Shown here: one piece after another, positions 33,283 through 64,000 of the stretch
Layout of the letters: every line of letters starts with the position of its first letter
How positions within the stretch are numbered: the first letter of the stretch is position 1
Source: Ginglymostoma cirratum
Taxonomy: Eukaryota
Direction of reading: 5' to 3'
Length of the DNA stretch: 64,000 bases
Assembly (NCBI GenBank): GCA_024137785.1
Contig: JAHRHZ010000283.1
Location: 59,475,309-59,539,308, forward strand
The notes under the pieces: generated by a model
Databases searched by the model: none
The model's input: the letters and a program-made list of their open reading frames with translations, nothing else
What the model was told of the DNA's origin: nothing
Program-made: the position numbers and the translations under genes

Positions 33283-33784
33283 GTAGGAAGTATCTTGGTT
33301 CACCTTCAGTTGAGGGTATTATCTGTATTGAACAATGCTAAGTTTTAGTAAAATTACTAGTTATAAGCAGCTGGTTGAATGTAGCCGTCAACCCCTTCGC
33401 TGTTCAGCAATGTTAAGCCTGCTTAACCACTACATCAGACCCAGCTCTGCTGTGTAATGTTAACTGCTTTTAAAATGAACAAATACAGAGGAGCCACACT
33501 TTCACCTTGTATGCTTTTGGTCTGTTTTCACTGACCTTGGTAAAGCATGTTGGTTAGGGTTCAGTGTAACTCGGGTACTAAAATAAACACACACAAGTCT
33601 AGAGAACTCAGCAGAACTATGGCGAGAGAAACAGTTTAAAAGTTTCACAAGGACCTTTCTTCAAAACCAAGCTCATTAGAACAGATGAGCCCATGACCGT
33701 CTAAGCTGCCTAACCTTCAAGGACAGGTAGATGAGCTAATGTCCAAATGTCTGACTCTAACCTGCCTGTCAGTCTGTCTGACTT

Positions 33785-33873
33785 AACAAGGCGTGGGGCT
33801 GGATGAACACAGCAGGCCAAGCAGCATCATAGGAGCAGGAAAACTTGACGTTTCGGGCCTACACCCTTCTTCA
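33785..33873 (-). mobile_element. 89-bp Penelope family-A insert starting at the hammerhead core
   Basis: Reverse complement TGAAGA-A-GGGT GTAG GCCC-GAAACGTC-AAG...; TSD AGTC(T/C)GTCTGACTT at 33771-33784 and 33874-33887. Confidence 0.8.
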
Positions 33874-34758
33874 AGTCCGTCTGACTTGCTGTCTGAATTT
33901 TTTATCTTCTGTGGGGGTAGTGGCTAACCAGGCAAAATCTGTCACTTGTATAAATCTGACTGCAAGCCATCGTAGCAGCAAATGTTTCCCACCTTCAAGA
34001 TTAACAAAGAAAACCTTTCCTTACCAACCTTACACCTACATTTGATGAGGGGAAAGCCACCATCATTGTGTAAGCGAATGTTGTTTTAGATTGGCTTTGG
34101 TCCATTTGAAAGCCAAACTGTGATTGCATGTAGCCTACTGGAGATTATCCCCCTCTTAAGAAGATTGCTTAGCTTTGACTGATTTTGATTTTAAAGTCGT
34201 TTTTTTGTTTTGTGTGTTTTTAATCCTGTATTAAAACAGCTCCAGATGTTTTCGTTGAATGACAAAATGCCAAACTCTGCTCTAAACAAGAGTTGTAATG
34301 GACTTGAAATGTGGACTCTTGCTTTTCAACAAGAAACGCTCTTGTTTGTCCTCTCCCCAGGTGCTGCTAGATCTGTTGAGTTCTCCAGCACATTTTGCTC
34401 CTTTTTGAAGTATCAAACCACAATTTTGTAGTGTTCATGATTACACCTTGCATTTATTGAAGACTGGCATTACTTGGATGGGTCATTGCTTTTTAGTGCA
34501 TCGTCAATAGATAATATTGGTGGGTGGAACTGAACATTGGATGGGGGGGGAGGGAAAGAGTAAATGTTTTGTTATCTTTTATGGCTATTTTAGCTCGATT
34601 GATAAGGAAGAATATGAATGGGAGGTAGCCTATCCAGAGGTGTTAAAGTACCCTGCTGACATTCATCATGGTGGGGGTGGGAGTAGGGGAATGGGTGGGA
34701 GTAGGGGAAGAGTCTGATATCTGGTTATTAAAGCTTGGTTTTTGTATGCTTCTCCCAG

Positions 34759-34952
34759 TGACCAAAGCATCAGACGTTGGTAACAGTGGATCACTGACCA
34801 AAGTGGAAGATGGCACTGTTGATGTGTGCTCGATACAGGAAAATGGCGATGTACATAATCAGAATGCAATGACTTTTGAAACAAAACCTGACGAAACTGC
34901 AGCCAAACACAACGAGCCCTCCACAAGCTATAAAGTAGAAGAGAAGCCTGAG
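34759..34952 (+). CDS. UBR7: UBR7 exon 7 (variable linker)
   Basis: (V)TKASDVG...QENGDVH...KVEEKPE; VTK start and ENG motif as in human; 194 nt restores phase 0. Confidence 0.85.
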
Positions 34953-35416
34953 GTGACATTTATTTTAGTGAAAATCTACTCTGTTTACTGTGGGTGAACC
35001 AAGTTGACTTTCCATCTTCCTCTAATTGAAGATTGAATCAGTGTCTGTGTGCATGGTTTACAAAAATTCACAACTTGTGCTTCATGTTATTGGAATGCTT
35101 TCTCCCGTGAAATAAGCCAGGGTTGAGTGCTTTATTTTCAAGTGAATTTTGACGAGAGACATTCACAGCGCAGGAGACCCTTCAGTCCATTGAGTATGTG
35201 TTGGCTGTCAGAATGACCTAGCCATTAGTCTCCTCTTCTAATTCTTTCTAAAAACCCATACAAATCATATTGGTTAGGCTGCATTTAGAATATTGCATCC
35301 AATTTTCAGCAATTTGCATTTACTGTAATCTAGGGATAAACTGCTTTTGTTCTAAAGGGAGATTAGAAAACTTTCATTGGAACAAAGCAAGTTTTTAAAA
35401 AAAAGTATAAAAGTAT

Positions 35417-35510
35417 TTCTGAAGAAGGGTCTAGGCCCGAAACGTCAGCTTTCCCGCTCCTCTGATGCTGCTTGGCCTGCTGTGTTCATCCAGCTCTACA
35501 CCTTGTTATC
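35417..35510 (+). mobile_element. ~93-bp Penelope family-A insert with intact hammerhead core
   Basis: TTT-CTGAAGA-A-GGGT CTAG GCCC-GAAACGTC-AGC at 35416-35449. Confidence 0.8.
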
Positions 35511-35792
35511 TTTAAAAAAAAAGAGTAGAAATGACTTGGAAAGTTGAGAAATTTTGATAAGGCAAATAGAGGGAAACTACATGTGGATGTATATATACAC
35601 TCAATAATTGGCACCAACATTTTCAATAGTGAGGTGTGAAGTGGCATGCTTTGTTAGAAAGAACAAGAAGGCCACTGACTGCTTTGTTAATGAGTCTAAA
35701 TGCCACAGGAGTAAAAGAATCCAGGGGTAATACAGAAATGACAAAGTACTGGCATAGTTTAACTGCCTATCTCTTTGGCCTTGAAACTGCTC

Positions 35793-36212
35793 AACTCGTC
35801 CCCGCCTCCCTAACCTGTTCTTCCTCTCACCTATCCCCTCCTCCCACCTCAAGCCGCATCCCCATCTCCTATCTACTAACCTCATCCCGCCCCCTTGACC
35901 TGTCAGTCCTCCCTGGACTGACCTATCTCCTCCCTACCCCCCACCTACACCCACCTTTACTGGCTCCAACCCCGCCTCTTCGACTTGTCTGCCTCCTCTC
36001 CACCTATCCTCTCCTCTATCCATCTTCTATCCACCTCCCCTTCTCTCCCTATTTATTTCAGAACCCTCTTCCCCTCCCCCATTTCTGATGAAGGGTCTAG
36101 GCCTGAAACGTTAAGCCTTCCTGCTCCTATGATGCTGCTTGACCTGCTGTGTTCATCCAGCCCCACAGCTTGTCATCTCGGATTCTCCAGCATCTGCAGT
36201 ACCTATTATCTC
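35793..36212 (+). mobile_element. Longer Penelope family-A pLTR (pyrimidine-rich body + hammerhead + tail)
   Basis: C/T-rich tract, then ATTT-CTGATGA-A-GGGT CTAG GCCT-GAAACGTT-AAG at 36081-36115 and tail ...cagcatctgcagtacctattatctc. Confidence 0.8.
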
Positions 36213-36729
36213 TGATACTATATTACAAAAGGATTCCAATTACAAAATAGATTGACGATTTCTGGAAAGATAGAATTGGAAAGCAGAAAAGACATTGATA
36301 AACTTGTAGTCTAAACTAATAATTATACATTTTGGAGTTCTGCAAATCTGTGAATTGTTCTGATCTTTCTCTGATTTAAACAAAACTTGTATTCCATGGC
36401 CTGTATATATATTAAATTACAAGAATAATTTTAGTTCCAAGATTATCTGTGAAGATGGAACCAGTTGCGATTTGCTTATCTCTTTTGGAGAAGTACAAGG
36501 GTTGTTCTTTTTTAAATGATGATGCTCGATGGGGTAGACATAAAGAATTTCCACTTGTAGAAGATTTAATAATGGGACCAAAATGGCTAATAAATCCAAA
36601 ATGGAAGTCTGTACGGCAAGGAACAGTTGAGGTGAAAAGCATTGATACGTTCATGAGGAAGCCAGACACACCTTGAGCAGAAAGCATTGTTGATGGGCTT
36701 GGAAGGAGACTTGTCGTTTTCTTTTTTTA

Positions 36730-37212
36730 AATTCATTCTCGGGGTATGGGCATCAGTGGGCAGGCTAGCATTTATTACCCTTCCCTAATTACCCCCAGGG
36801 CAGTTAAGAGAGAACCACATTGCTGATGCAGGTTTGGAGTCACATGTACTCCAGACCAGATGAGGATGACCGATTTTCTTCCCTGGAGGACATTAGTGAA
36901 CCAGACGAGTTGTTTTCTGACAATCAACAATGGTTTCATGGTCATCATGAATCAGTAAAATCTGAAATTAAAGTGCCATGGCAGGATTTGAACCCATGTT
37001 CCTTGAATATTATCTGTGTCTCTGGATTAATAGTCCAGCAACAATATTACTAGGTGATTGATAGTGAATAGTTTAGCTGCTTCCTTATTTTTAAAAATGC
37101 CAGATTTTATTGAATTTATTGAATTCATCAAATGAAAGCGGGATTTGAACCCATGTTCGGTAAGGTGGGATATTGGATTACTAGCCTGGTGATATTACCA
37201 CAAGGCCACTCT
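36730..37212 (-). mobile_element. Family-2 SINE plus a second partial head
   Basis: Reverse complement of the 13855-14200 family; B-box ggatttgaaccc occurs twice. Confidence 0.7.
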
Positions 37213-38057
37213 AAGGTCTTCCCTCCATGTGGATCATAAATGCTGGTATTAACCAGTATGGCTGAATGGCCTGTGTGCTTTGACTTGATGTACTCTGATT
37301 TTTGCTTTTGATCTGCTTCATTGCCTGTCGTAATAAAAGCTCTTGAGTATTGTCAAAGTGTAGTACTGGTGTAAAGCCAAGAAGACCAGGCGCTGCCACA
37401 TGAGTCTTCCATTAAACATTTTGGAGCATTATAAAGCAAGTGAAGGATTCTGCCCTGAGCTATGCTGTAAAGCAAACACAGCACTGCACTTCTAGCAGTG
37501 TTGTTCTTTTGTGTTTTAACTCTTTAGTCCAATTATCAAAACTCCAGCTGTCATTCAAATGCTTCTTTTCAGTTACAATTACCCTCCGGCTTTTGTAATT
37601 CACTCACTTTGGCTGACCTGTGATTAAATCACTGTGACTGTGTAATCTTTGAAGGACTGTATGGAGTTTACAAGTCATCTGATCTGGTTATGGACATCCC
37701 AATAATTCAAAAGTTCATGTGAAGTTACTTGGGTTTCAATTCCATGGTTTAGCTAATCAGTCTGAACCCCTTAGCAGGCAGTCAGTTACTCTGACCCCCC
37801 ATGACCCATCTTTAAAAAGTTACTAGAATGCTGTAGTTTTGAGTGTGCTCCTTCGATTAAGATGTTTGACATCTGAAGTTGTTTTAATATAAACATAACT
37901 TACCATGTCAGAGACTAGTAATTTTTAAGTAGAAATTCAAATTCAGTTTTTAACCGAAAAGGCCATGCAATGAGTTTGGTGAGACCAAGCAGAGACTCAA
38001 GACTGTTTTGTGTAGCATCTGCGTTCTGTACATGACAAACAACACCTTCTGGTCACG

Positions 38058-38913
38058 GAGATAATAGGTACTGCAGATGCTGGAGAATCTGAGGTAACAA
38101 GGTGTGGAGCTGGATGAACACAGCAGGCCAAGCAGCATCATAGGAGCAGGAAAGCTTGACGTTTNNNNNNNNNNNNNNNNNNNNNNNNNNNNNNNNNNNN
38201 NNNNNNNNNNNNNNNNNNNNNNNNNNNNNNNNNNNNNNNNNNNNNNNNNNNNNNNNNNNNNNNNNNNNNNNNNNNNNNNNNNNNNNNNNNNNNNNNNNNN
38301 NNNNNNNNNNNNNNNNNNNNNNNNNNNNNNNNNNNNNNNNNNNNNNNNNNNNNNNNNNNNNNNNNNNNNNNNNNNNNNNNNNNNNNNNNNNNNNNNNNNN
38401 NNNNNNNNNNNNNNNNNNNNNNNNNNNNNNNNNNNNNNNNNNNNNNNNNNNNNNNNNNNNNNNNNNNNNNNNNNNNNNNNNNNNNNNNNNNNNNNNNNNN
38501 NNNNNNNNNNNNNNNNNNNNNNNNNNNNNNNNNNNNNNNNNNNNNNNNNNNNNNNNNNNNNNNNCCTAAACATGAATTTCACCAGTTTTAAAATCTCCCC
38601 GCCCCCAGCCTCATCCCATGACCAACTCTCCCCCCTCATCTCTGCCTCCTTGACCTGACACAACCTGACCATGTTCTCTCCCACCTATCCGCTCCTCCCA
38701 CCTCATTGACCAATCCCCACCACTCCCTACCTGCACTCACCTATCACCTTCCCACCAACCTTCGCCAGCCCCACCCCTCTTCTCTTTGTTTGTTTGTTTG
38801 TTTCTGAGCTCCTTCCCCCCCCCCTCCCCATTTCTAAAGGGTCCTGGCCTGCTGTGTTCCTCCAGCTCCACACTTTTATCTCTCACTCCAGCATCAGCAG
38901 TTCTTGCTATTTC
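38058..38913. mobile_element. Penelope-like element with inverted 5' pLTR, spanning the assembly gap
   Basis: 38058-38164 is an inverted family-A tail; after the gap, ...LNMNFTSFKISPPP resembles the Penelope ORF end, followed by a pLTR with a partly deleted ribozyme. Confidence 0.7.
38165..38564. other. Assembly gap (400 N)
   Basis: Run of N. Confidence 1.
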
Positions 38914-39875
38914 TTGCAATGAGTTTGTTTTAAGGAAAAAAAATGTCTACTGACATAATTTAAATAAGAAACAAATGCATCCCTTGTAAGTACTTGTGCT
39001 TCGAACCAACACTCCAAACAGAACACTCCCTGTTCTACTTTCAATTTCAACCACAAATCCTTTGTTTTACCTGCTACAGCTTCCTGAGGGGTATTCCAAT
39101 CTGGAACCAAACCAAGGTGTGACACAGTTCCCAGGAATTCACTCTAACTCTCAATCTGATAATTGCTTCCAAAATGTTTTCTCCTTGAGAAAATCACTGC
39201 CAATTTCATCCATTAGCTTCGCTAGGCAGATCTTAATTTTCTTGAATCAGCACATGCTTATAGTCCTTGCACAGAGTCAGAACTCTGTGCCTGATTTCTG
39301 TTTGTCTAGAACACCTGGCAAATTCGGCTTGTCTTCTCTAAACAGCCACACTGCCTCACAGCCTGTTATAATATCTCTGCTGATTTCATCATCAAGAACC
39401 TCCTCCTCCATGTGCCCAATGGGACGCAGCCTTTTTCTAAATAAAATGCAAATCACTTGTCTTTAAGTTGCTCCTTTTTGGATCCAAAAGTGTATGGCCT
39501 TCCTTAATTTGTAAACTATCTGTAAACCTTTCTTTTGGAACTCCTAAAATTGCATGAATAATTTAACCCCAATTTTGCACCTTCTCTTCAAACCCTCTCC
39601 TCAGTTGCCTAGAAACCTGCCTCCTTGAGATACTGAGAGGTGCCATTATACTCCTAGGTGTAAATATTTCAGCAACACGACTTCTGACTTTATTCTGCAA
39701 CTCCAGGCCTATTTATTAAGCTATCCCGACCACACACACTCCCATCTGTCTCAAAAATAACACAAAAGCTTCCAGACTCCAGAGCTAGGATATTAGAAAG
39801 CAGAAGTTACAATCCTAAAACATATCCTGGCAAACAGATACACTAGTAAAAAGGTTGTTCCATTTTGTATCCCAG

Positions 39876-40043
39876 GGAGCCAGTGGTGGTGATGCTGGTT
39901 GCAGCGTGAAGGAGGAGGATGTTCCAGAAAATACAGGTTGCAAACTGCAGCAGGTGAAGAAAAAAGGTGAATTGCAGCGAGACTGTGCCACCTACTGGCC
40001 TCATAACTGGCGTAACAAGCTGTGTACCTGCCAGTCCTGCATG
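39876..40043 (+). CDS. UBR7: UBR7 exon 8
   Basis: GASGG...GCKLQQVKKK...ATYWPHNWRNKLCTCQSCM; 168 nt. Confidence 0.93.
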
Positions 40044-40699
40044 GTATGTTTGTCTTCTCCCGTGACTTTTCTTTATCCACCCCCCCCCCCCCACTTTTTT
40101 TTTAAAAATAGTTTTGATTTGAATTATGCTTGTTTAGTTTGTCTTGGAATTTTTTCCTTTAGTATACAAACAGTTTTGGTTAAACCAGTACCACAAATCT
40201 ATCTTGTAACATATTTGAAACCAGTAACGTCGGAGATAGACTAGAGACGTTCTGCATTCTTAATCGCATGAAATTGCGGCTAATCAGTGTTCAGTCTGCA
40301 CTGTTCTTCCACTGGAATCTCTCTCATACAGGTGCTGTTTCTTCCAACAGCTTCAGTTTATTGTTGTTTCCAGCACTTGCAGTTTTGTGGTTTCTATTTT
40401 GAAACCAAGAACGGACCATCAGTCACAATCTAACTTGGAAAGAGAGCCATTCTGCAAACACAGTGTAGCTGCTTGTATATCTAAAGTTGTTAGAATGTCC
40501 ACAATGAGAGGTCGTAGGATATCTCTACAAAACAAGGTCTACTTAAGTACATTTTGATGTTTGTTTCCAAGGCATCATTACAGGGGTTCCCCCAATTTGT
40601 GAATGCCTGACTTAATGAGTTTAGTAACAGTCTCACGGTGAAGCAATCTGGGATCAGGGTCCTCCCACTCTTTGCAGAGTGTTGGGAGGAAACAGTGAC

Positions 40700-43600: not shown

Positions 43601-44910
43601 CATGCTCGATAAATCTGCTGGAATTCTTCAAGGATGTAATGAGTAGGGTTGATAGGGGGAGCCAGTGGATGGAGTTTATTTGGACTTTGAGAAGGCTTTT
43701 GACAAAGCCCCACATAAGAGATTAATGTGTAAAATTTAAAGCGCGTGGTTTTGGGGGTACTTCGATGTATTTCGATGGAAAGAAAGCTGGTTAGCAGAGA
43801 TGAAGGGTTTAGGCCCGAAACGTCAAGTTTTCCTGCTCCTATGATGCTGCTTGACCTGCTGTGTTCATCCAGCCCCATGCTTGTTATCTCTTAAGCTGGT
43901 TAGCAGACAGGAAATGAGAATAGGAATAAATGGGTCTTTTTCTGATTGGTGGGCAGGTGCTGCAGGGATCGACACTGGGACCCCATCAATTCACAATAAT
44001 ATGTTAATGGTTTAGACGAGAGAACTAAAAGCTGGGTGTAAGGGTGAGCTGTGAGGGGGATGTAGAGATGTTGCAGTGTGATTTGGACAGGCTGAGTGAG
44101 TGGGGAAAATGCAGTATAATGTGGATAAATGAGAGGCTAACCACTTTGGCAGCAAGAACAGGAAAGCAAACTATTAGTTGAATGGCTGTAAATTGAGAAA
44201 GGGGAATGTTCAACAAAACCTGGGTGTCCTCATGCACTAGTCACTGAAAGTAAACACACAGGTGGCAAACTGTACATTGACCTTCATAATGAGAGGTATT
44301 GAGTAAAGGAACTAAGATGTCTTTCTGAAATCATACAGAGCATTGTTGACGCTACACCTGGATTACTGTGTGCTGTTTTTGTCTCCTTCTCTACAGGAGA
44401 TGCTCTTACTATTAGAGGGAGTGCAGTGAAGTTCACGATATTGATTTGTGGAATAGCAGCACTATTGATGAGGAGAGTTTGAGTTTGGTTGTATTCACAC
44501 TGAGTTTGGTTGTAGGCTTGTATTCACTGCAGTTTGGAAGAATGAGGGGGGAATCTTATAGATTTCTCTAAAATTTTAACAGAACTAGACTAAAGGATGT
44601 TCCTGATGGCAGGGGGAGTCCAGAACCAGGGGTCATAGTTTAAGTATAAGGGTAAATCTTTAGGACTGAGATGTGGAGAAATTTCTTCATCGAGAGTACT
44701 GAACCTGTGGAATTCACTACCACAAAGTGGTTGAGGCCTAAACATTGTTTTCAAGGAGGTGGATATGGCTGTTGTGGCTAAAGGCATGGAGGGATACGGG
44801 GGAGGGTGGGATTAGGGTATTGAGCTCAATGATCAGACACCACGTTGAATGGTGGAACAGGCTCGAGGAGTTGAAAGGCCTGTTGTTCTTATCCTCTGTT
44901 TCTACAAATG
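40700..44910 (+). mobile_element. Near full-length decayed CR1 LINE (ORF1 esterase remnant + ORF2)
   Basis: EQPVVVV remnant, YTNAQSI, MGDFN, SDHN, NKEMADE, YRPVSL, QHGFIKAKSC, and a 3' tail; many stops and frameshifts. Confidence 0.85.
43799..43892 (+). mobile_element. 94-bp Penelope family-A insert nested in CR1
   Basis: GATGA-A-GGGT TTAG GCCC-GAAACGTC-AAGT...; perfect 15-bp TSD AAGCTGGTTAGCAGA at 43784-43798 and 43893-43907. Confidence 0.85.
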
Positions 44911-47771: not shown

Positions 47772-50765
47772 CCATAAGACATGGGAGCAGAAATTAGGCC
47801 CCTCAGCCCATTTGAGTTTGCTCCAACATTCAATCATGGCTGATAAGTTTCTCAACCCCTTTCTCCCAATAACCCTTGATCCCCTTGACAATCAGGAACC
47901 TATCTATCTCTGTCTTAGATATACTCAATGACCTGGTCTCCACAGCCTTCTGTGGCAGCGAATTCCATAGATTCACTATTCTCTGGCTGAAGACGTTTCT
48001 CCTTATCTCTATTCTAAAAGGTCTTCCCTTCCCTTTACTCTAAGGCTGTGCCCTTGGTTCCTAGTCTCTCCTAGCAATGGAAACATCTTCCCAACATCCA
48101 CTCTGTCCAGGCCATTCAGTATTCTGTAAATTTCAATGAGATGCCCCCCCTCATCCTCCTAAACTCCATCGAGTATAGACCCAGAGTCCTCAAACGCTCC
48201 TCATATGTTACACTTTTCATTCCTGGGACCATTCTCGTGAACTTCCTATGAACCTGCTCCAGGGCCAGTCCGTCCTTCCTGAGATTTCAGGCCCAAAACT
48301 GCGCACAATACTCCAAATATGACCCGACCAGAGCCTTATAGAGCCTCAGAAGTACATTCCTGCTTTTATATTCAAGTCCTCTCAAAATACGTGCCAAAGT
48401 TGCATTTACCTTCCTAGCTACTGACTCAACCTGCAAGTTTACCTTGAGAGAATCCTGGACTAGAACTCCCAAATCTCTTTGCACTTCAGACTTCTGAATT
48501 TTCTCCCCGTTTAGACAATAGTCCATATCTCTATTCTTCTTTCCAACGTGCATGACCTCACACTTTTTCCCATGTTGTACTCCATCTACCACTTCTTTGC
48601 CCACTCTCCTGACTTGTCCAAATCCTTCTGCAGCCTCCCCACCTCATCAACACTACCTCTTTTTGTGTCATCTGCAAACTTAGCCAGAATGCCCACCGTT
48701 CCTTCATCTAGATCGTTAATGTATAAAGTGAAAAGTTGTGGTCCCAGCACTGACCCTTGTGGAACACCACTTGTCACTGGCTGCCATCCTGAGAGAGACC
48801 CTTTTATCCCCACTCTCTGCTTTCAGCCAGACAGCCAATCTTCTATCCATGCTAGCATCTTGCCTCTAACAACATGGGACCTTATCTTACTCAGCAGCCT
48901 CCTATATGACACCCTGTCAAACACCTTCTTGAAGTCCAGGTAGATAACATCCATTGGCTCTGCTTGGTCTAACCTGCTCATTTCCTCCAAAGTATTCTAG
49001 TAGACTTGTCAGGCATGACCTCCCCTTGATGAAGCCGTGCTGACTTTCCCCATTTAGCCATGCACTTCCAAGTATTCAGAAATCTCATTCTTCACAATGG
49101 ACTCTCAAATCTTACTCACAAGCGAGGTTAGGCTAATAGGTCTGTCATTTTCCGTCTTTTGCCTTACTCCCTTTTTAAACGGGGGTGACGCATTAGCGAT
49201 TTTCCAGTCCTTTGGGACCCTCCCTAACTCTAGCGATTTCCTGAAAGATCATCACTAACACCTCTGCCATCTGTTCAACTATCTCCTTAAGAACTGTGGG
49301 CTGTAGTCCATCTGATCCTGATGGTTTATCTACACCTTCAGGCCATTCAGTTTTTCTAGCACCTTCTCCTTGGTGATCCTCAGCTCTGCCCCTTGACTCT
49401 TGAATTTCTGGGATATTACTCGTGTCTTCTACTGTGAAGACTGATGCGAAGTAATTATTCAGTTCCTCAGCCATTTCCTTGTTCCCCACTACCAACTCTC
49501 TATAGTGTCATCTCTCTAGTGCTAGCCAGGGTAGAAATGAAAGAATAGGCAGGATGAACACGTGGCTTGAGGGATGGTGTAGGAGAGAGGGGTTCAGATT
49601 TGTGGGACACTGAGACCGGTTCTGGGGAAGGTGGGACTATTACAAATTGGATGGTCTACACCTGAACCAGACTGGAACTAGTGTCCTAGGGGGAGTTTTT
49701 GCTAGGGCTGTTGGGGAGGGTTTAAACTAATGTGGCAGGGGTCTGGGAACCAGAGGAGAAGACTAGTAGACAGTGAGGTGGAAACTAGAGACTGTAAGGA
49801 TCATGAAGTTAGCATTACCAAGGGGAAGAGTAGGCAGAGAGCAGATGAACGCAAAGGAACTGGTGTTCTGAAGTGCATATACTTTAATGCAAGGAGTATA
49901 GTGGGTAAGGCAGACGAGCTTAGGTCTTGGATTAGTGCCTGGGAGTATGATGTTATTGCGATCACAGAGACTTGGTTGAAGGAAGGGGATGATTGGCAAC
50001 TAAATGTCCCAGGATATAGATGCTTCAGACAGGACAGGGAGGGAAGTAAAAGTGGGGGAGGAGTTGTATTGCTGGTCAGGGATGATATCACTGCTGTGCT
50101 GAAGGAGGGCACTATGGAGGGCTTGAGCAGTGAGGCATTATGGGTGAGCTGAGAAATAAGAAGGGTGCAGTTACATTGTTGGCGCTGTACTACAGGCCTC
50201 CCAACAGTGAGCGTGAAGTAGAAGAACAAATAGGTCGACAGATTATGGAAAGATGTAGAGGTAACAGGGTGGTGGTGATGGGAGATTTTAATTTTCCCAA
50301 CATTGACTGGGATACGCTTAGTGTCAGAGGTCTGGATGGGGCAGAATTTGAAAGGAGCATCCAGGAAAGTTTTCTAGAGCAGTATGTCAATAGTCCAACT
50401 AGGGAAGGGGCCATATTGGACCTAGTGTTGGGGAATGAGCCAGCCCAGGTGGTAGAAGTTGCAGTGGGGGATTTCTTTGGGAACAGTGACCACAATTCTG
50501 TGAGTTTGAGAATACTCGTAGACAAAGATGAGAGTGGTCCTAAGGGAGGAATACTAAACTCATTGCACAACATTAAATCCAGTATTGCCTGTTCCCTAGT
50601 GGGCTCCACCACAAGTTGCTCCAAAAAACCATCTTGTACACATTCCACAAATTCCTTTTCTTGCAATCCACAACCAACCTGATTTTTCCCAGTCCACCTG
50701 CATATTGAAATCCCCCATGATCACTGTAACTTTTGCCTTTCTGCACACCTTTTCTATCTCCTGGT
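47772..50765 (-). mobile_element. CR1 LINE with internal deletion, interrupted by an opposite-strand CR1 segment
   Basis: RT region ([16 protein letters not shown]) at 47772-49513; endonuclease part (MGDFN...LDLMLCNE) at ~50559-50765. Confidence 0.88.
49514..50560 (+). mobile_element. Internal segment of the young CR1 family (ORF1 end + endonuclease start)
   Basis: ...DGLHLN...GEGLN* then CIYFNARSIVGK...IAITETWL...; 49983-50560 is near-identical to the reverse complement of 20828-21406. Confidence 0.9.
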
Positions 50766-55066: not shown

Positions 55067-55650
55067 ACTCGGTTACTTTCTACCTAACTGATTACTATAA
55101 AGCCCAAATCCATCCTCCTAATATTTTGGATTTTTTTAGTCATTCCTCAATGCTACATTTAGAGAAGGCCTTTTAACTTTTTTCAGGACTGTTATCATTT
55201 GGGGATAAACATCTTTGTTTGAATAAGGTATGAGGAAAACACTTCGTGGTCATGGGGAGAAGAGTTTTAGAAGAAATTCTACCTTGCAAACAGAAATATG
55301 AAAAGTAAATAAGTGAGGCCAGAGCTAGTGCAGAAGGGTTAGACGGGGGAAAGATATTGAACACTAGCTTTATGAAAGCTAATGTGATCATTTGAGCTGG
55401 ATTTGATATACAATTCCATTACGGGCATTAGTTTTTGAGGTGAAAATTTAGTGACAATGTGCTTTATATTGCTACATAGAACTTGATTCCTTAGTTACTG
55501 TGTAACTTCTGGTTCACTTATCTTTTTGCAGGTCTTGCAGCACTCTCCTGGTAAAGCACTTTGCAGCATAGTGATTAATTTACAACTGGATATTCACATC
55601 ATATTAACTAGTTTTACAATTCAAAAATGAATGAGACATTCTATAGACCA

Positions 55651-55656
55651 TTTATT
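55651..55656 (-). terminator. Candidate BTBD7 poly(A) signal
   Basis: TTTATT on the + strand, ~2.8 kb beyond the BTBD7 stop, after a long AU-rich, repeat-poor tract. Confidence 0.4.
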
Positions 55657-56544: not shown

Positions 56545-56860
56545 AAATTCTGTTGTGCCTTTCATAACCTTAGGACATCCCTAAGCTAATGAAGTACTTT
56601 TGAAGTGTAGTCATTGCTGTAATGTCAGAATTGCAGCGCTCAATTTGTATTCAGCTAGGGTCCACAAAGGAACAATGCAATATTATCTAAAGAATCTATT
56701 CTGTGATGTTGGTTAGAGAATAAATATTGGTCAGGATGCTGGGGAGAATTTCCCTGCTGCTCTTCAAAATAGTGCCTTAGGATCTTTTATCTCCACCTGA
56801 GAAAGCAAGCAAGCAAGGCCTCTGTTTAATAAATATTTCAGCCAGACCCCCCTCTGGAAA
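56545..56860 (-). mobile_element. Deu-domain SINE (SacSINE1/AmnSINE-related)
   Basis: aatgaagtacttttgaagtgtagtcattgctgtaatg...gatgttggttagagaataaatattggtcaggatgctggggagaa is the reverse Deu core. Confidence 0.75.
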
Positions 56861-58491
56861 GCAAATCTCCTAATAACTAATAACAACCTAATAACTCAGC
56901 AGGGAGTTCTACAACAGCTGAAATTCACTTAAGAGTTGGTCATCAGGAACAAACCTTCATGATTATATTGCAGCTCTCAAGTTTTAAATCTTAACAGATC
57001 ATTTTGATTGCAGTACCACAAGAGACAGATGATTAGATTGCATAGTAGCAGTGAAGAGATCAGTTCTTCTATTACCCATGCTTTGCACTGGAAACTGGCA
57101 GGCAGACAGTCAGTCAGTTAATCATTCACACTATCCTGTCTCTTCCCATTTTACTTCTAATTCTGATCATGCAAACAAAAAAAACACTGAACAGGAAAAA
57201 CAAAAATAAAAGTAAAACATCTGTGCACAACTGTCAAGCCAGTTTTATACTACAAATAATATTTTAATACCACAACCAGATTACAACTAAAACACTAGTT
57301 GTACGGAGCTTGTTGCAGCTTATTAGCTACTTAAAGTTTCTGTCTGCAATTTTTCTTTGAATCCATATATTTGCTACAACTAAAAAGAATAATATCAACA
57401 CCCTACATACTTTCACCTTCTATCGAGGGTTAGTATAACGCTATTTCCCCTTCAAACAGATGATATAAGTCTTTGAAAACTGAGAAAAGCATTGGATTTA
57501 ACACAACTGGGAATTGAGCCTGAAGCTCATCACATGCTGGACAACAGAAAAGTCCCTCAACAAGGGAGTGATACAGCCCAAATATGTACAATATGCAAAG
57601 TTTACCTGGTTGCAGCAAGGGGAAATATAATAAATTTAAAATCTAACAGACCTCAGATTCTAACTATTCACTTCAATAGTTGATTGATTCCAATACTTCA
57701 AAGTACACAATTTCAGAGACCAACATATCATTCAAAAATTTGAGAAGCAGCTGCCTAATCAAATGAGGAGAAAGGCCAAAGAGGTTTCACATAACCTGCC
57801 ACAGATCAACACAAGGCGAAAGATATGGCAGCAGTTTTGGATGGAACTCTAGCTACTTTATCTGTGTTGCTAGGATTTCTGCCTTTGGGATTCAGCTTCT
57901 CTCCATATATTAAAACACTAATCTTATAAACCGATTGTCACAGCAATCTGATTGTCTCAAGATTAAGACTACAGATTCAGATTGACTAGGATCTGTGCTC
58001 TCTGTCTCAATACAGGCAGTGGGCCAGTGGAATACAGATAATCTTCCCTTGTAAATGTATTCCAATGCCTAGAATATACTTCAAAAGAATACCATCCATT
58101 CTAAATAAGACTATAAACTTTCTCAAAAATGAGAAAATACATCAACTGGTATCAGAATACTTTTCAGACATACAGCTCACCGTTAAATATCACACAGCCT
58201 TAATTCAATACACAAAATACATCCACATTTTTAAACAAACCTGTAAAAAGGAGGTAACAGATCAAGCATTTTTTTCTCAAAATGGTAAACTCGATTAAGC
58301 AGACTATTTAAACTTTAGAAAGAATGAAAATACTGGTGCAAGACATGTTCTTCAAGATATCACAAAAGTCATAGAAAACCATCTAGAAACAGTTCAGATC
58401 AAGGTAGAAATGTTATATATACAAAACATTACGAAAGCAAAGTTAATAATGCAGTCATCTGAAGAAAACGTAGACTAGATCACTGTCATCG

Positions 58492-59289
58492 CTAAAGAGC
58501 AGATTTTTTGTATGGAAGATCAGGTCTGCTTGGTGATCTCCTTTCTCGGCTTAACGTATCTTCCCTATTCTGAATGTTTCTGTGTGGCTGGACACTGACT
58601 CCTGGCTCCAGCATGCCATCATCAGATGACCTTCTGTTGTAGCTGGCCTCATGGTTGTCAGAACTACAAGGCACACGCAAAGCTCGACTTGCCGTTAGGC
58701 CATAGGTTAGATCTGTCTCCATTAAACCCCTACTTCTAGTATGCAGAGACCCTCCACTAGACTCCTGTAAAAGTGCCAAGTCCAACCTGTGTGGAGGCTG
58801 CTCCAAGAAATCAAAGTACGGTGGGCCACTGGGTCGGGGCTGATGAACTTCCGGAGGCAGAAAGTATTCTCTCCGTGGTTCTTCTGGTTTACTCGAGGTT
58901 TCACTGCAAAGTGAGGTCATTTTGAAACTTGCTGCTGCTGGCCTATTGTGACTGTATAAGTCTGGACCCAAAAATGCTCCTTGTGCAGAAGCTGACGTAT
59001 GTCTGCTGGTTCCTGGAGCGTATGATCGGTAAGCTGTGCTGGAAGAGAAGTCATACAGATCTGGATACTCCACTTTCAGGTCAGGTTTCCTCCTCGTACT
59101 ACTGTGTGTATGCCTATTGTGTATATATGGAGCAGGACGTGGAAATGATGCAGAATCTGAAGCCATTTGGTTTATTTCAGCATTCAGACTCAGTTCTGGA
59201 AATCTTCTATCCTTCAGTGATAGATTACTCAAGGACGTCACACCCATCGCAATGTCTGGCATTAGTTCATTTAAGGTACCTTCAGTATT
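58492..59289 (-). CDS. BTBD7: BTBD7 terminal coding exon
   Basis: NTEGTLNELMPDIAMGV...EYPDLYDFS...GPDLYSHN...ETDLTYGLT...RRSPSRPDLPYKKSAL*; AG at 59291-59290. Confidence 0.93.
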   Translation of the reverse strand, partial: NTEGTLNELMPDIAMGVTSLSNLSLKDRRFPELSLNAEINQMASDSASFPRPAPYIHNRHTHSSTRRKPDLKVEYPDLYDFSSSTAYRSYAPGTSRHTSASAQGAFLGPDLYSHNRPAAASFKMTSLCSETSSKPEEPRREYFLPPEVHQPRPSGPPYFDFLEQPPHRLDLALLQESSGGSLHTRSRGLMETDLTYGLTASRALRVPCSSDNHEASYNRRSSDDGMLEPGVSVQPHRNIQNREDTLSRERRSPSRPDLPYKKSAL

Positions 59290-60442
59290 CTAGGAGAATT
59301 TTTTTAAAAAAGACATTTATAAAATGAAACAAATGTAGCATTTCTAACTCCATAGCTTTATAAACGAGACCACAAATATACTGAACATAATTTGTCAGAT
59401 ATTTACCAGCATGCAAAATCTTTTGAATAAATTAGATTAAATATGAAATCTTATTAAATTTTGTATTAAAAGCATCTCAGTTGGAACTTAAAAACACAAA
59501 AGCAATGGACAACTAAACATTCTCAGGTAATCATTAGCAGGGAATCCTCTTGACAACATCTTTGTGCTTTTCCTACTCTTACAATCAAACTGATCCCTGG
59601 ACTGAGATCACATCAACATTCTCCATCAATAGGAGAAACAGTTCTCTCAAGGTGAATAGTCATTCAAATTAAACAATTAGATTTTTTGAAAAAAATCATT
59701 TTGAAAGGAGATCAGTTACAGCCGGTTCTGCAGGGTTCAGATGTTTCATTATTAAAATAAAATAGGGATCTTGCCTACAGCATTTGCTAACGTCCAATAC
59801 ATTTTCTCAAAGGTACCAGAACAATTTTCTTTGCTCACAAGTAAGAGCACAAGAGAAAAAAATTTAAAACAGGTGATCAAACAGGACGAGGCACCTGGTA
59901 TGCAGCTTCATTTCATGGAAGCTTGAACAATCTTCCAACAGGTTGAACAATCAATGCAGAAGTCTGCAAACTTGCTCTGCAGAACTACTGAAATTATAGA
60001 AATCAGTAGCATTGGTACAAAAGTGCACTCACATTGGGACCCAGAATACGCAAAAATCAGTCCCAGGTTTACTAGTTATTTGAAACACAAATTTCATGAA
60101 AAATTAACAGTTTTGTAGCATGCACTGTGAAATGTACGCTTATTGTACGGTAATACAAAATAGGAAACAAACTAATGTGGTTTTGACTAGTTAGAAATAA
60201 ATGCTCAATTTATTGAACAGCAGCAGCTGACTGAGGCTATCTGCTACTGAAGTCTAAAGGGGAAAAGAAAGGCACTATTTGGTCTCATTGACTGCTTGTC
60301 AATAACTCAGATTAAAATTAACTCAGTAGAAATATACTAATACCCCATTTTAGGTTCTAAAATCTAGGCCAAAAATTGTAAAGAAAGATACAAACTCTCT
60401 CACATCTTATTACTAATCTAATATTGGAAAGGCAGAACTTAC

Positions 60443-60829
60443 CGTCAGCTCTGGTGCTATCCGAACCAATCCAGAAGAGTTGGTGCAATCAGGAGGCATT
60501 ACTTTACCACCAGATGGATAAACAGGCCTGGGAGCTATCACAGGATACAGCATAGAACGGTTACAAGGGTATGACAAGGAGCGGGATGACAATTGGCCCG
60601 GCAGCCTTTGTCTCCAATCTACCTTGTGTTTCTCATGAGCTGGGGGAGCAGGAGGCTGATATGGTGGTGGTGGTGGTGGTGGTAAAGTTGGATGGAATGC
60701 AGCACAAGGTTCAATATCACTATATTCTGCAGATGGTGAGCTATTTATTCTACAGTGGTTGTGCTGCCGAAGACCCAGCAGTGGACTCTCATCACCAAAT
60801 CGTTCATGAGGAAAGAACTTATGAGGATT
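60443..60829 (-). CDS. BTBD7: BTBD7 penultimate exon
   Basis: NPHKFFPHERFGDESPLL...AFHPTLPPPPPPPYQPPA...SRSLSYPCN...PPDCT; 387 nt, phase 0/0. Confidence 0.93.
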
Positions 60830-61191
60830 CTGAGGAGAGTAAACATAATTCATTATCAGAGCTATCCTTCCATACCTATATTTACAGAATACTGTATAAA
60901 CATCTACTCGTTTTAAAAAACTCTGTGGAGTATTAACAGTAAGAAAAATTCTAATCTGCAGATTAATAATTTGAATTGCAGCCTAAACAATTCAAAAGTG
61001 ATTTAGTAAATCTTGCCTAGCTAGTTATATTGCAACAAATTGCTTTGGTCAGAAACCAACTATGCAAGACATTGCTTAATAGTTTTCTGAAAGCACAGTT
61101 GTACCTTCTTGAACATAAATTGACTCTTAAATCAGTTTTAGTCTGCACTGATCAATTACATTATTTATAGGGTCAGTAACATTTCACATAC

Positions 61192-61370
61192 CTGAAGCAG
61201 CTCAACAGCAGCATCCGGGAGGTTAAATTCCCTCAACACCCGAATCTGAATTTCGTAGCTAACAGTTGCTCCTTCTCCACAATTCAATGCATATGCACGC
61301 TGGACCTGATCAGTGTGTCTAAGTTCCTGCAGACGCCTGATCATATCTTTCACCATATTCAATGGAGGGA
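61192..61370 (-). CDS. BTBD7: BTBD7 internal exon
   Basis: (V)PPLNMVKDMIRRLQELRHTDQVQRAYALNCGEGATVSYEIQIRVLREFNLPDAAVELLQ; 179 nt. Confidence 0.95.
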
Positions 61371-62023
61371 CTGTAAAGTAATGTTTATTTATTTAATTAA
61401 ATACAAAATTTCTTGCAAAGTATTTTAGACATTTTATAGGGGAATAGAAACATGGGTGGCGAATCTTTAAAAAATGTCAAGATGTACTTTGTCACCAGGT
61501 TCTAGAGCAGTGCCTCACTCAAGCGGTCACCATTTACGTGTCAGCCTCTTGTAGGGAAGATATTGAGGCTATATGACTCTTACAGACTTAGGTCTGCCAT
61601 ACATACCTTCATTAATTAAACGGTATCAGCTTCTCTCTTACTTTGAGTAAGAACTCTCATTTCTTTAAATTCACTCATATACAATAGGATTTTCATGAAG
61701 CCCTGTGATCAAACTGGATCTGTGCACTGAATTAGTATACAGAGACAAAAAAAAAACAAAACCCAAGAAAAAAAAAGCCAGTTTACTGGAGTCACTTCTC
61801 CAAAAAAGCTAAAATTCAAACTTAGAAATCTGCATTATTTAAGCAAGATAATAAGATCGTCTTCCAGGGCTACAAACCAACACAAGTACAACAGGTATAA
61901 CCCAACGGGCCAACGCAAATTAAAGATTTTACTTTCAGTGCATCCTGAATTATGCTAGAGGCATGTTAATTGTCTGAAAATGCTCTATTACACAAAAAAA
62001 ACGTTGTTAAAACTGGACGCAAA

Positions 62024-62055
62024 GTTAAAGCTTTTCATTTTCTGCTCATCAGGAC
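62024..62055 (-). ncRNA. Degenerate hammerhead motif (family D)
   Basis: GUC-CUGAUGA-GCAGAAAAU-GAAA-AGCUUU-AAC; helix III contains the AAGCUU palindrome; helices I and II partly decayed. Confidence 0.45.
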
Positions 62056-62364
62056 TAGGAGCAAGAAACAAACTTAAGGGGCACCAATTTTTTTCAACAT
62101 GAAAACAGGGTGCTAAATGTTTGGGCCATTAATGGCATGGAGATGAAATTAGATAATATATTTCGTCTTATGCAGAAGCCAACTGACTTAGTATATCAGA
62201 TTTCTCAAATGCTGTGCAAGTAGATAGGTCATTTCAATGGGGTGGGGATTCATTCGTGAGGGGAGGGTGGTGGTAACAGAAAGAGAGGAAACCAATTGCT
62301 GCCTTGAAAGTCAACATTAAGTCAAAACATGCTGCAATTAAACCACAAAACATGCACCACTCAC

Positions 62365-62554
62365 CAGGTATTTCATTGGCAATAATCGTAGGAGGATTGG
62401 ATGATGGTGTACCTATTGGCTGGTGGCTGATTAAATGACAACATTGTGGTGCTGCACTGTTCACCATGTACAGTGTGTCTGGTACATTTGACATGCGAAC
62501 CATGCGCAGTCGCACAAGATCAGTTTGTTCAACCATCATTTCATCCAAAACAGC
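62365..62554 (-). CDS. BTBD7: BTBD7 internal exon (earlier exons lie beyond the window)
   Basis: AVLDEMMVEQTDLVRLRMVRMSNVPDTLYMVN...ANEIP; 190 nt, phase 1. Confidence 0.95.
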
Positions 62555-63103
62555 CTGAGAACAAAAGTTCATGCAACAATCAATCACACATGGACAGGGA
62601 TTGTCTCTTTCTTTTCTTCTTGCAACAAAGTTGTTGAACTTCTAAAGTGGAAGTGGTGGTTTTGACATCTTTCCATTATATGTTATAGTTTGGAAATTTA
62701 ACAGAAGGATGGACAATTAAAAAGCGTCACTTGTTTTCAGAGAAGTTTATAATTCTTAGTTTTGCTGGAAAATGGGGCTAATCTTAATACTTCATAATGA
62801 AGTTCATCAACTTAACACTAAAGGCTGTTCAGATGAAGAGTAACATTTTACTAGCTGTGGAACTCCAAGCCCCTCATGCCAAAAGCCACTTCTCATTTTA
62901 GGGGAACATACAGTTTTTACCAACAGTGCCCGAAAAGCAAACAGCTGGCTATTAATATTTCCTATCCTAACTGAAGTAACGCTTAAGCCATCAGTTTTGC
63001 GTATTGTTAGAACAAATTGATAGCATGTGAAAAATCAGCAATGCAAATCTTTTCATGTTACCACTACAAGTCACAAATTTACAGCCAAACATCATCATAA
63101 GAT

Positions 63104-63420
63104 TGGAGAAGCAAATTACTGCTGATGCTGGAATCTGTATAGAAAACATCATGCTGGAGATCTAGACTCAAACATTAGCTTGCTGCGTCTCCACAGATGC
63201 TGTCTGACCCAATGTGATCTCCAGCATTTGTTGGAAAACCCCATCTGGTTCACTAATGTCCTTGAGGGAAGGAAACTGCCATCCTTACCTGGTCTGGCCT
63301 ACGTGTGACTCCAGACCCACAGCAATGTGGTTGACTCTGAACTGCCCTCTGGGCAATTAGAGATGGGCAATAAATGCTGCCTAGCCAGTGACACCCTCAT
63401 CCCGTGAATGAATTTTTAAA
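63104..63420 (+). mobile_element. Penelope-like tail remnants (inverted) followed by a family-2 SINE 3' half
   Basis: atgctggagatc...gatctccagcat inverted pair; SINE aaaaccccatctggttcactaatg...catcccgtgaatgaat. Confidence 0.65.
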
Positions 63421-63599
63421 AAAATCATAAAATCGTAAGAAACAGGAGCGAGAGGTCATTCAGACCACTAAATAGGTCTCTGCCATTTAGAAGATTTAGT
63501 TGAATTGACAGTAGCCTTAGTTCCACCTTGCCAGCTGCTCTCCCATATCCATAGATCACTTTGTAAATCAAAAATCTGACAAACTCAGCCCTGAATATA

Positions 63600-63699
63600 G
63601 TTCTGGGGAAGGGTCACCAGACCCAAAACATTAACTCTGCTTTTGCCTTCACAAAGGCTGCCGGACCTGCTGACCTTTTCCAGCAAATTTGTTTTTGTT
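63600..63699 (+). mobile_element. 100-bp Penelope family-B insert nested in a CR1 tail
   Basis: GTT-CTGGGGA-A-GGGTC ACCA GACCC-AAAACATT-AACT (mutated core); TSD CCTGAATATA at 63590-63599 and 63700-63709. Confidence 0.75.
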
Positions 63700-64000
63700 C
63701 CTGAATATATTCAACCCAGCTTCCACAACTCTCATGGTAAAGAATTCTAAAGGGATTGCCTCAGTTTATTAGGATTTAAAATTATTCAAATTACTTTCTT
63801 CCAAAGTTCATTGTATTACTCAGTAAACATCAAGGTTAAATTAATACATGTTGACTATGCATTAGTGTCAATATTTAAAGAAAGCTAGTATCGATCAACG
63901 AATTTCACTTGCCAAAACTTTCACTTCATCACACATGATACTAGGCATACACAAACTGTGGTGGGTAAGTTGTTGGAGGCGGTTCCGAAAGATAGGATTT

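Follow-up and report, generated by a model that had tools for sequence, protein, structure and literature searches.

Introduction

Penelope-like elements (PLEs) of the EN+ Penelope/Poseidon type (PMC3846280; PMC8557442 / bioRxiv 2021.04.23.441226) are the closest described relatives of the short shark insertions considered here. The two have in common a parent with RT and GIY-YIG, copies arranged head to head, a tail at one end and TSDs of 10-15 bp, and in the passages of this literature drawn on here a TATA box and an Inr-like sequence are noted once, in a rotifer pLTR. The same passages describe variable 5' truncation and contain no class of stubs with a fixed wall tied to a start site, in contrast to the shark copies. 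The D. virilis element has a TATA-less promoter, transcription mapped from 371, and an intron (416-491) whose 3' end abuts helix I of the ribozyme, which places the start ~120 nt upstream of helix I.

For the anole Poseidon element PAc, in vitro work in 2024 described internal initiation by RT, two 3'-end sites that bound the tail, and uncleaved RNA as the template (PMC11167929). The shark elements resemble PAc in the two 3'-end sites, the presumed uncleaved template, an ORF region that opens with a ribozyme and, judged by eye, the spacing of TATA and initiator motifs. The available passages of that text treat where RT starts rather than where RT ends in vivo. Genomic coverage in its Fig. S2 might already show 5' ends.

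Minimal type I hammerhead ribozymes of metazoan PLEs are widespread as single motifs and have been ascribed to truncated PLEs (PMC4209133). The shark motifs share with them the CUGANGA core, an extra nucleotide before helix II, palindromic positions flanking the cut and a short helix I; that account does not deal with the start points of truncated copies, and cleavage of the shark motifs is predicted only. Non-LTR retrozymes (PMC7229834; bioRxiv 10.64898/2026.07.22.740005) are likewise short, non-coding, related to pLTRs, dependent on PLEs and equipped with a type I hammerhead. Retrozymes, however, occur in tandem and give rise to circular monomers by cleavage, whereas the shark stubs are scattered, either singly or head to head, have TSDs and do not start at the cut site.

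Results

Short family A and B insertions end at the ribozyme core

We analyzed 64,000 nt of Ginglymostoma cirratum DNA (GCA_024137785.1, contig JAHRHZ010000283.1, 59,475,309-59,539,308, forward strand), referred to as the window; positions are window coordinates, and 5' ends are given relative to C3, that residue of the CUGANGA core. All family A and B Penelope insertions in the window were counted, for a total of nine events. A family C hairpin, whose fold lies ~110 nt upstream and which lacks a 7/7 initiator at the corresponding distance, and two weak matches of 25-33 nt stand outside this count.

The original prediction named four short inserts, and all four are present. The family A heads at 33785-33873 (minus strand), 35415-35511 (plus) and 43799-43892 (plus) are tail-less, and begin at core U4, 4 nt before C3 (ATTT-CUGAAGA, at the A that is the candidate +1 described below) and at G5, respectively. 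The family B head at 63600-63699 (plus), whose core is mutated to CUGGGGA, begins at +1/+2, 3 nt before C3 or 4 nt if the last A of its TSD is counted as common. The statement that these inserts begin within ~3 nt of CUGANGA was correct to within 1 nt, although only the insert at 35415 has an intact CUGANGA, and the start that had been given for it, 35417, fell 2 nt short. Three of the inserts have TSDs in the 10-15 bp range claimed for them (14 bp with 1 mismatch at 33785, 15 bp exact at 43799 and 10 bp exact at 63600); that of 35415 is ambiguous, in an A-run. The first 5 letters of the 63600-63699 TSD are also similar to family B's own 3' continuation. Overall, TSDs are present in 5/9 events, ambiguous in 1 and were not found in 3, against a background for the TSD finder of at least 12 bp in 3/495 random 95-bp intervals.

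Three insertions are head-to-head units of adjacent inverted 5'-truncated copies. The family A hairpin at 4099-4315, with a tail-less inverted arm (4099-~4186) and a tailed direct arm (~4186-4315), folds back at the boundary, as had been noted, and counts as one event because its own 14-bp TSD (1 mismatch) flanks it. A family B hairpin that the earlier account omits (28893-29090) gives further support: its inverted arm begins at -1/+1 (28998), 4-5 nt before C3, and its direct arm begins near a GTTAAC palindrome at the predicted cut site; a TSD search there found none. The third unit, a gapped family A insertion (38058-38914), consists of a tailed inverted arm (38058-38164), 400 N, the last codons of the ORF (38566-38655), UTR, and a head from which the ribozyme core is deleted. 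This insertion and two further long copies (35795-36213 and 6776-6965) are counter-examples absent from the earlier account.

In six of the nine events, from both families, the 5' end falls in a 13-nt interval from 5 nt before to 7 nt after C3, an interval picked after the data were seen. Random (geometric) truncation would give such clustering with P<=3e-5 at every rate tried, and P<=3e-4 allowing 10 possible intervals. The claim of a non-random 5' boundary common to two families is thus borne out. The boundary is also not the product of ribozyme cleavage, as had been argued; the predicted cut follows C3 by 28 nt in family A and by 30 nt in family B, a little further than the ~25 nt proposed.

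The boundary coincides with a candidate promoter start

The long family A copy at 35795-36213 (plus strand) contains a C-rich 3' UTR, the head and a 34-nt tail, and matches a shark RT-GIY-YIG read-through protein. A TATA-like box, TATTTATT, at 36050-36057 is the sole such cluster in its 290-nt UTR and lies at -31 from A36081, the candidate +1 in an initiator match CCATTTC (YYANWYY, 7/7; 36079-36085). The longer family B copy at 6776-6965 (plus strand; 12-14 bp TSD) has ~90 nt upstream of the core, with a TATA-like box, CATATATA, at 6835-6842, at -30 from A6865 in the initiator match TCAGTTC (7/7; 6863-6869). The UTRs of the two families are unalike, and in both the candidate +1 is 4 nt before C3, which is precisely the start of the fullest stubs. 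The six clustered ends lie at 0 to +12 from this position, none further upstream. In another subfamily TATTTATTTC is retained near -32, although the letters that follow it differ (a loose end of 9 reads in X24).

The motifs were noticed after the ends, and their thresholds were fixed afterwards. Shuffled UTRs carried both TATA-like and initiator motifs in 0.03% and 0.3% of 20,000 trials, and 3/682 CTGA sites in the window have both, two of the three being the copies at 36085 and 6776-6965. The initiator shares letters with the 5' strand of helix I, so base pairing constrains its A as well. In the published 126-nt UTR of anole PAc (PMC11167929), a by-eye count puts a TATA-like run from nt 76 and the A of a 7/7 YYANWYY match at nt 107, again with a spacing of -31; this candidate +1 is 20 nt before the ATG and 14 nt before C3, in contrast to 4 nt in the shark families. 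From the motifs and the ends together, we infer a Pol II start at A36081 and A6865. None of the three window junctions that reach +1 has an extra G of the kind derived from a cap.

Ribozyme, tail and parent element

The family pattern (CUGANGA and GAAA boxes, helix II, palindromic helix III positions and a short helix I with 2-5 of 6 positions paired, depending on the copy) fits a minimal type I hammerhead. The motif at 36085-36112 on the plus strand (CUGAUGA, helix II, GAAAC-GUU), modeled after PMC4209133, has a predicted cut after 36112. An Rfam search of the window gave no hammerhead match, and CUGANGA is not enriched there (42 vs 38.9 expected). No pile of read starts reached threshold along this stretch in polyA fragments, where none would be expected.

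The 34-nt tail (36180-36213, plus strand) lies between two 3'-end sites, with sharp loose ends at 36179 and 36213/36214; this fits two RT start sites and a tail of 30-40 bp. The ORF end at 38566-38655 matches P0003 (70%, E 2.4e-4), which in turn finds the shark proteins P0004 and P0006. P0004 has a GIY-YIG above the cut-off and an RVT_1 match (E 9e-5) below it; P0006 reads through the UTR and ribozyme and matches 35789-36107 (E 1e-14), and in both a Cys-rich motif precedes the nuclease, in the RT-EN linker whose Zn finger bears, together with RT phylogeny, on placement in the Poseidon or the Neptune clade. The window contains no full Penelope ORF. Indirectly, through these proteins, the parent appears to be a PLE with RT plus a GIY-YIG endonuclease at the C-terminus (EN+).

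Reads placed on the long copy

In one public RNA run (X23), 58,001 polyA reads, which are expression-weighted, were placed on the 35795-36213 copy at >=80% identity. Depth rises from 4,790 in 36064-81 to 12,169 in 36082-99, a 2.54-fold step with a slope of 0.052 per nt, about 11-fold the mean over 35812-36064 (0.0045 per nt) and compared with ~0 over 36136-71. Eight of the 12 fold-back joints listed (1,088/1,281 reads) have one side at 36078-36086, and four of these eight are also seen in DNA-type contigs of X4; among the 12 rows listed in table 5c, four land on 36082. The ends are spread rather than sharp: the biggest fold-back joint falls at 36086 (+6), and none of the six largest loose-end piles in X23 (each at least 2,671 reads) is at 36078-36099. 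Summed contig depth, which does not measure copy number, has a small step in X1 (1.00M to 1.14M) and no step in X4 (4.61M to 4.69M), which carries another species label. Long copies with UTRs less than 80% alike would also clip near the depth step.

A second, 1.94-fold step at 36114-36118, beside the predicted cut, has loose ends that spell out the ribozyme (agreement 0.75 and 0.62), so it seems to be an artefact of clipping caused by a 1-nt indel. For about half of the reads it masks where they truly begin. One locus may dominate the 8,218-read pile at 36213, given its agreement of 0.61. The only possible traces of a partial tandem (pLTR-ORF-pLTR) are back-joints from the tail end into head or UTR, which occur in both reads and contigs; a full copy is absent from the window.

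Discussion

We favor, with some reserve, the view that the stubs are cDNAs that begin at an internal RT start and run off the element's own transcript at its 5' end, predicted to be 4 nt before CUGANGA. Minus-strand strong-stop DNA of LTR elements and retroviruses arises in this way: RT is primed shortly inside the RNA and runs off its capped 5' end, leaving a short cDNA of fixed length. The analogy is not one of membership, since strong-stop DNA is tRNA-primed and transient, whereas the shark stubs would be primed by the nicked target and fixed in the genome. Pol II transcription would begin at A36081 or A6865, and cDNA primed at +99 or +133 would be copied to the RNA cap. Usually 0-11 nt would be lost at joining, giving stubs of ~90-100 or ~130 bp. 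Hairpins would form when both target strands prime or when the run-off end snaps back, so that two ends join head to head, and long copies would arise if RT jumped templates or if, on a tandem RNA made by read-through, it started at the downstream initiation site. This scheme takes target nicking, internal initiation at both tail ends and uncleaved RNA from the anole element (PMC11167929). The common boundary would then be shared because the RNA starts there, and that it matches the ribozyme edge would merely follow from how the element is laid out, since the ribozyme comes first in the RNA. The TATA-less promoter and more distant start of D. virilis, the spread of the ends, the absence of an extra G and the family C hairpin weigh against this view.

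It is also conceivable, but on balance doubtful, that RT copying a longer RNA falls off just past the ribozyme, either because the new cDNA folds up the helix II complement behind a weak U-rich hybrid, much as at a terminator, or because a dimeric ribozyme or a bound protein blocks it. The ends, at +1 to +12, are about one hybrid length past helix II, a U-run follows in family A, and the fold-back joints and the position relative to CUGA are alike in two families. An RT stop at helix II, one of the two explanations originally offered, stays in contention as a rival. However, helix II has only 4-5 bp, the stubs fold no better than shuffled sequences (z -1.47 to +0.99), and the boundary coincides with the TATA and initiator motifs, whose spacing in three families such a stop leaves unexplained. 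Template helices usually stop RT on entry, which here would be near GAAAC, and not on exit, where these ends lie. Palindromes at inverted junctions of rotifer PLEs have been interpreted as self-priming, which would suit such a stop; the passages on the anole enzyme, in contrast, report none on templates to -126 (PMC11167929).

Other processing of RNA or DNA could set the boundary, either splicing to an acceptor in or close to helix I or trimming of the new DNA where the GIY-YIG endonuclease meets its first ATT beyond the C-rich UTR, but we find this improbable. The D. virilis intron ends at helix I, and acceptor-like letters are present in both shark families (TTTCAG at 36057-62, ~20 nt upstream, in family A; ATCAG at 6862-66 in family B, where the initiator is also legible as a CAG acceptor adjoining helix I). 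A spliced template would add an upstream exon, yet the TSD adjoins the core in 3/3 TSD-bearing stubs, and none of the 15 joints listed (184 more exist) is a GT..AG skip. The anole enzyme favors ATT (PMC11167929), which stands at +1 in family A; family B lacks a same-strand ATT there.

Highly unlikely, in our view, is the other explanation originally offered, a discrete ~95-nt ribozyme-headed mini-retroelement whose own short or circular RNA is copied by Penelope RT in the manner of retrozymes. The constant size class and TSDs would suit it, as would the abundance of reads, with about 70-87% of head depth lacking the upstream UTR of the reference copy, and a single listed back-joint, from 36213 to 36092, in 51 reads. 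Non-autonomous PLE derivatives are known, and the window lacks a long copy of subfamily A2 (35415 and both arms of 4099-4315). The variants of the short copies nevertheless do not set them apart: in a tree of 7 copies and 89 columns, the short 33873 and 43799 group with the long 36085 and the tailed 38164 (weak support, no starred branch), and a short-only clade is disfavored (p-AU 0.034). Three of the four named inserts lack an intact core, the window self-comparison contains no head-to-tail arrays of stubs, and in the one polyA run the ~95-nt form is outnumbered by the tailed ~130-nt one. The listed back-joint, from polyA data that would not exclude circles, is not at the cut, where a ribozyme-cleaved circle would join, rather than at +12 or the tail end. 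The stubs also lack the ~55 nt downstream of its start site that the anole enzyme requires (PMC11167929).

Ordinary random 5' truncation, with clustering due to small numbers, detection bias or clipping where UTR subfamilies diverge, is most improbable: there are only nine events from one window, and the contig runs have little or no step, but the clustering survives correction for the choice of interval, TSDs set the ends independently of alignment, and the local excess in raw reads and the fold-back joints fall at the same place. The original observation is thus confirmed, and the interpretation given to it is partly supported.

If RT does run off at the RNA's 5' end, stub starts should track the initiator (4 nt before C3 in the shark, 14 nt in the anole) and not the ribozyme. 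The stubs have neither the TATA box nor what lies downstream of the start site and so would be dead on arrival; on this reading they should not be annotated as SINEs, MITEs or retrozymes. The regeneration of pLTRs and tandems and the role of the hammerhead are stated as open in the PLE literature, and the in vitro work on PAc covers internal initiation, not the fate of the cDNA at the RNA 5' end 100-130 nt later. We tentatively speculate that PLEs may have a strong-stop step, at which target-primed RT, having started ~100-130 nt inside a capped mRNA headed by the hammerhead, mostly aborts at the cap, with pLTRs, full copies and head-to-head repeats following from the fate of the run-off end, which may jump, snap back or join a second such end. 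This would provide a mechanism for the formation of pLTRs and tandems and would make the ribozyme the extreme 5' part of the RNA, possibly as a decapping switch. With most events aborting at the RNA 5' end, the commonest Penelope relics would record the promoter start site, and each genome would hold many natural records of the run-off step.

The 5' ends of the short heads

All four short inserts of the original prediction are present in the window, at 33785-33873 (minus strand), 35415-35511 and 43799-43892 in family A and at 63600-63699 in family B, both families being Penelope-like elements with a hammerhead motif. Their 5' ends were thought to fall within about 3 nt of CUGANGA; this is right to within 1 nt, the ends being 3-4 nt before C3, the first C of that core, at 63600, at U4 for 33873, at G5 for 43799 and 4 nt before C3 at 35415. 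The 10-15 bp TSDs proposed for three inserts are there (14 bp with 1 mismatch, 15 bp and 10 bp), and the hairpin at 4099-4315 does fold at the shared boundary and has its own 14-bp TSD. At 35415 the TSD is an ambiguous A-run only. TSDs were used as end markers independent of alignment, and the finder returned 12 bp or more in 3 of 495 random intervals. Of the four, a single insert still has its CUGANGA intact.

Self-comparison of the window adds two long copies (35795-36213 and 6776-6965), a gapped unit (38058-38914) and a second hairpin (28893-29090). We looked for a TSD around the family A long copy (35795-36213) and did not find one. The count of nine events covers families A and B, leaving out the hairpin of family C and two short, weak hits; in six of the nine an end falls within one 13-nt interval at the 5' edge of the ribozyme (P<=3e-5 under geometric truncation; <=3e-4 allowing 10 such intervals). 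The 5'-end pattern is real and non-random, as had been claimed, and at these values chance or artefact is a very improbable source of it.

A third hammerhead-bearing family, C (29662-30022), forms a head-to-head palindrome with arms of ~175 bp that are 94% alike. It folds ~110 nt upstream of CUGAUGA, and each arm has a TATA-like box 48 nt ahead of C3; the full 7/7 initiator pattern was not found in this family.

The parent element

In the gapped unit 38058-38914, the 30 codons leading up to the UTR (the sequence between ORF end and head) match an 81-aa protein at 70%. This protein in turn hits whale shark and zebra shark proteins bearing GIY-YIG and RT matches, the RT match being below the Pfam cut-off, and the zebra shark protein runs through the UTR into the ribozyme, matching 35789-36107 (E 1e-14). 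By these protein matches, the heads are assigned at the sequence level to an RT-GIY-YIG Penelope-like element of cartilaginous fish. Another match, P0002, was rejected as the parent protein because it is an unrelated repeat protein. The shark motif has the layout of the minimal hammerheads described in PMC4209133. Rfam did not detect the hammerhead motif and, at E<=1, gave only miRNA-model matches, to two palindromes. In one long copy (38830-38860) the ribozyme core is missing entirely, together with ~50 bases after it, and the TATA-like box has become a TTTG microsatellite.

An ATG at +51/52 (family A) or about +57 (family B) is conserved in 9 of 11 copies. It leads a frame common to both families (MLLGLLCSS / MLPDLLSFSS, about +51 to +58, e.g., 36132-36213) that is open through the tail, an optional 34 nt (36180-36213), in most copies. 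This ATG is a candidate ORF start, which would place the ribozyme in a ~50-nt 5' UTR, and only a candidate because other frames are about as open. The AUG within CUGAUGA was rejected as a start codon, as it is absent from CUGAAGA copies.

Candidate promoter motifs near the ribozyme edge

Two long copies have their upstream sequence preserved, and they share one motif arrangement despite unlike UTRs. Both match the initiator consensus (YYANWYY) at 7/7 positions, with its A 4 nt before C3 (A36081 and A6865), and both have a TATA-like box: TATTTATT at -31 in family A, with no other such cluster in the 290 nt, and CATATATA at -30 in family B. With thresholds for the TATA and initiator consensus motifs that were fixed after the sequence was seen, both motifs occurred in 0.03% and 0.3% of 20,000 trials with shuffled UTRs, and at 3 of 682 CTGA sites in the window, two of which are the long copies. 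The fullest stubs start at the initiator A, the candidate +1. Against a promoter reading, the initiator overlaps helix I and family C lacks the full initiator pattern.

In the anole element, Poseidon PAc, the UTR as printed in PMC11167929 and counted by eye has a TATA-like run from nt 76, a 7/7 initiator A at nt 107, C3 at nt 121 and ATG at nt 127. The -31 spacing is shared with shark family A, whereas +1 lies 14 nt before C3 in the anole and 4 nt before it in the shark. TATA and Inr-like motifs are also described for one rotifer pLTR in the Penelope literature (PMC3846280; PMC8557442; bioRxiv 2021.04.23.441226). In contrast, Penelope of D. virilis has a mapped, TATA-less start ~120 nt upstream and an intron ending at helix I, according to sources that include PMC4209133.

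Reads beyond the window

Reads and contigs of 4 of the 24 listed sequencing runs (X1, X4, X23, X24) were aligned to the family A long copy at 80% identity. X23 is a single, expression-weighted RNA run, of which about a quarter was sampled, giving 58,001 aligned polyA reads. Upstream of the boundary its depth falls off gently (0.0045 per nt over 35812-36064); it then steps from 4,790 (36064-81) to 12,169 (36082-99), or 0.052 per nt, and stays level across 36136-71. Eight of the 12 listed fold-back joints, carrying 1,088 of 1,281 reads, have one side at 36078-36086; a further 184 joints of all kinds exist beyond those listed. None of the six largest loose-end piles in X23 is at any single position in 36078-99. 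A second step, at 36114-18, has loose ends made up of ribozyme sequence; it resembles a clipping effect of a 1-nt indel and hides about half of the 5' ends. Contig depth gives no copy number, and contigs show no step (X4) or a small step (X1) at the boundary; junction-spanning contigs are almost absent (0-1% run on). X24 supplied 55 reads only.

Loose 3' ends pile up at 36179 and at 36213/14, 34 nt apart. In X23 the tail is covered at 72% of the depth of the head, which means that the ~95-nt class is neither the only nor the main one in that run. A back-joint from the tail end to +12 (36213 to 36092) occurs in 51 polyA reads with 30 start places, and similar joints occur in contigs; it likely reflects head-to-tail tandems of stubs in DNA, the other reading being a circle.

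A stretch of ~30 nt upstream of the long copy (35758-35792) is joined to the element at two other truncation points, at 35966 in 41 reads and at 36080 in 5 reads and 1 contig. This stretch is not a TSD and has no second copy in the window; it could be a partner in recurring template jumps or else a repeated target.

Searching viral, metagenome and prokaryote collections with a sequence pattern returned 0, 0, 12, 6 and 1 loci. All 19 match over the pattern alone and are thus chance matches.

Origin of the boundary

PMC11167929 reports that the anole protein nicks AT-rich DNA on both strands, that its RT starts at two internal sites bounding the tail and needs RNA downstream of them, and that the template is uncleaved RNA. 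Shark 3' ends are at +99 and +133 and 5' ends at 0 to +12; TSDs are present, and head-to-head units have the tail on one arm. We favor, with modest confidence, the idea that the inserts are run-off products that mark the transcription start. Element RNA would start at +1 and the RT would run off its 5' end; this end could then be joined with a few bases lost, snap back, or meet another cDNA whose priming was on the opposite strand. A long copy would require either a tandem read-through RNA, used from its downstream start site, or a template jump, and the stubs would be inert. Against a start at +1, a cap-derived extra G was seen at none of the three window junctions that reach it.

A structure-linked RT stop at the ribozyme could also fix the boundary, a possibility that we consider unlikely, as the stubs fold no better than shuffles. 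A splice site or endonuclease trimming is improbable as the source, even though the D. virilis intron ends at helix I and the shark boundary letters can be read as splice acceptors.

The proposal of a discrete mini-retroelement lineage fared poorly. In a tree of 7 copies and 89 columns, none of whose branches has strong support, the short copies 33873 and 43799 group with the tailed copy 38164 and the long one, and 35415 groups with both arms of hairpin 4099-4315; forcing the three short inserts together cost 7.65 log units (p-AU 0.034). No head-to-tail arrays of the stub appeared in the window self-comparison, in which respect the stubs differ from retrozymes as defined in PMC7229834 and bioRxiv 10.64898/2026.07.22.740005. 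A second subfamily (35415 and the hairpin arms) with no long copy in the window would fit an independent element. Nonetheless, because of the tree placement, the absent arrays and the folding result, we regard a separate mini-element or retrozyme as unlikely, and an independent mini-element as slightly less probable than splicing or trimming.

The original prediction put the scissile bond ~25 nt past the boundary; the boundary is indeed upstream of the cut, but cleavage is predicted 28-30 nt past C3. The ends lie 26-34 nt upstream of the cut, and so, as had been argued, the stubs are not cleavage products. The sole exception is the direct arm of the family B hairpin at 29010: its junction (28985-29020) switches strand at a GTTAAC palindrome holding the predicted cut site, and this is the only window end that could come from cleaved RNA. 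Lariat branch points sit ~20-40 nt upstream of AG, and a stop at one was rejected by position.

Window context and novelty

Other window content includes large LINE-type RT fragments, which we take to be CR1-like, at 18997-21406 and 48189-50720; a frame scan gave a 557-aa open frame at 18997-20670 (minus strand), and a 579-bp stretch is 98% identical between 20828-21406 and 49983-50560. Long plus-strand open frames at 1313-1756, 58492-59289 and 60413-60982 look like host coding exons.

We found neither a fixed 5' wall of stubs nor a promoter, start-site or run-off account of one in the accessible text of the Penelope literature (e.g., PMC11167929, PMC4209133, PMC2377424, PMC3846280, PMC8557442, PMC7229834 and bioRxiv 10.64898/2026.07.22.740005). 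There may be prior notice of the wall outside this scope, in Fig. S2 of the anole paper, subscription papers and reviews, or Repbase notes. The inserts are fragments of a known class of element, with a known tail, inversion and ribozyme; apparently new are the fixed 5' wall and its proposed link to a candidate promoter.
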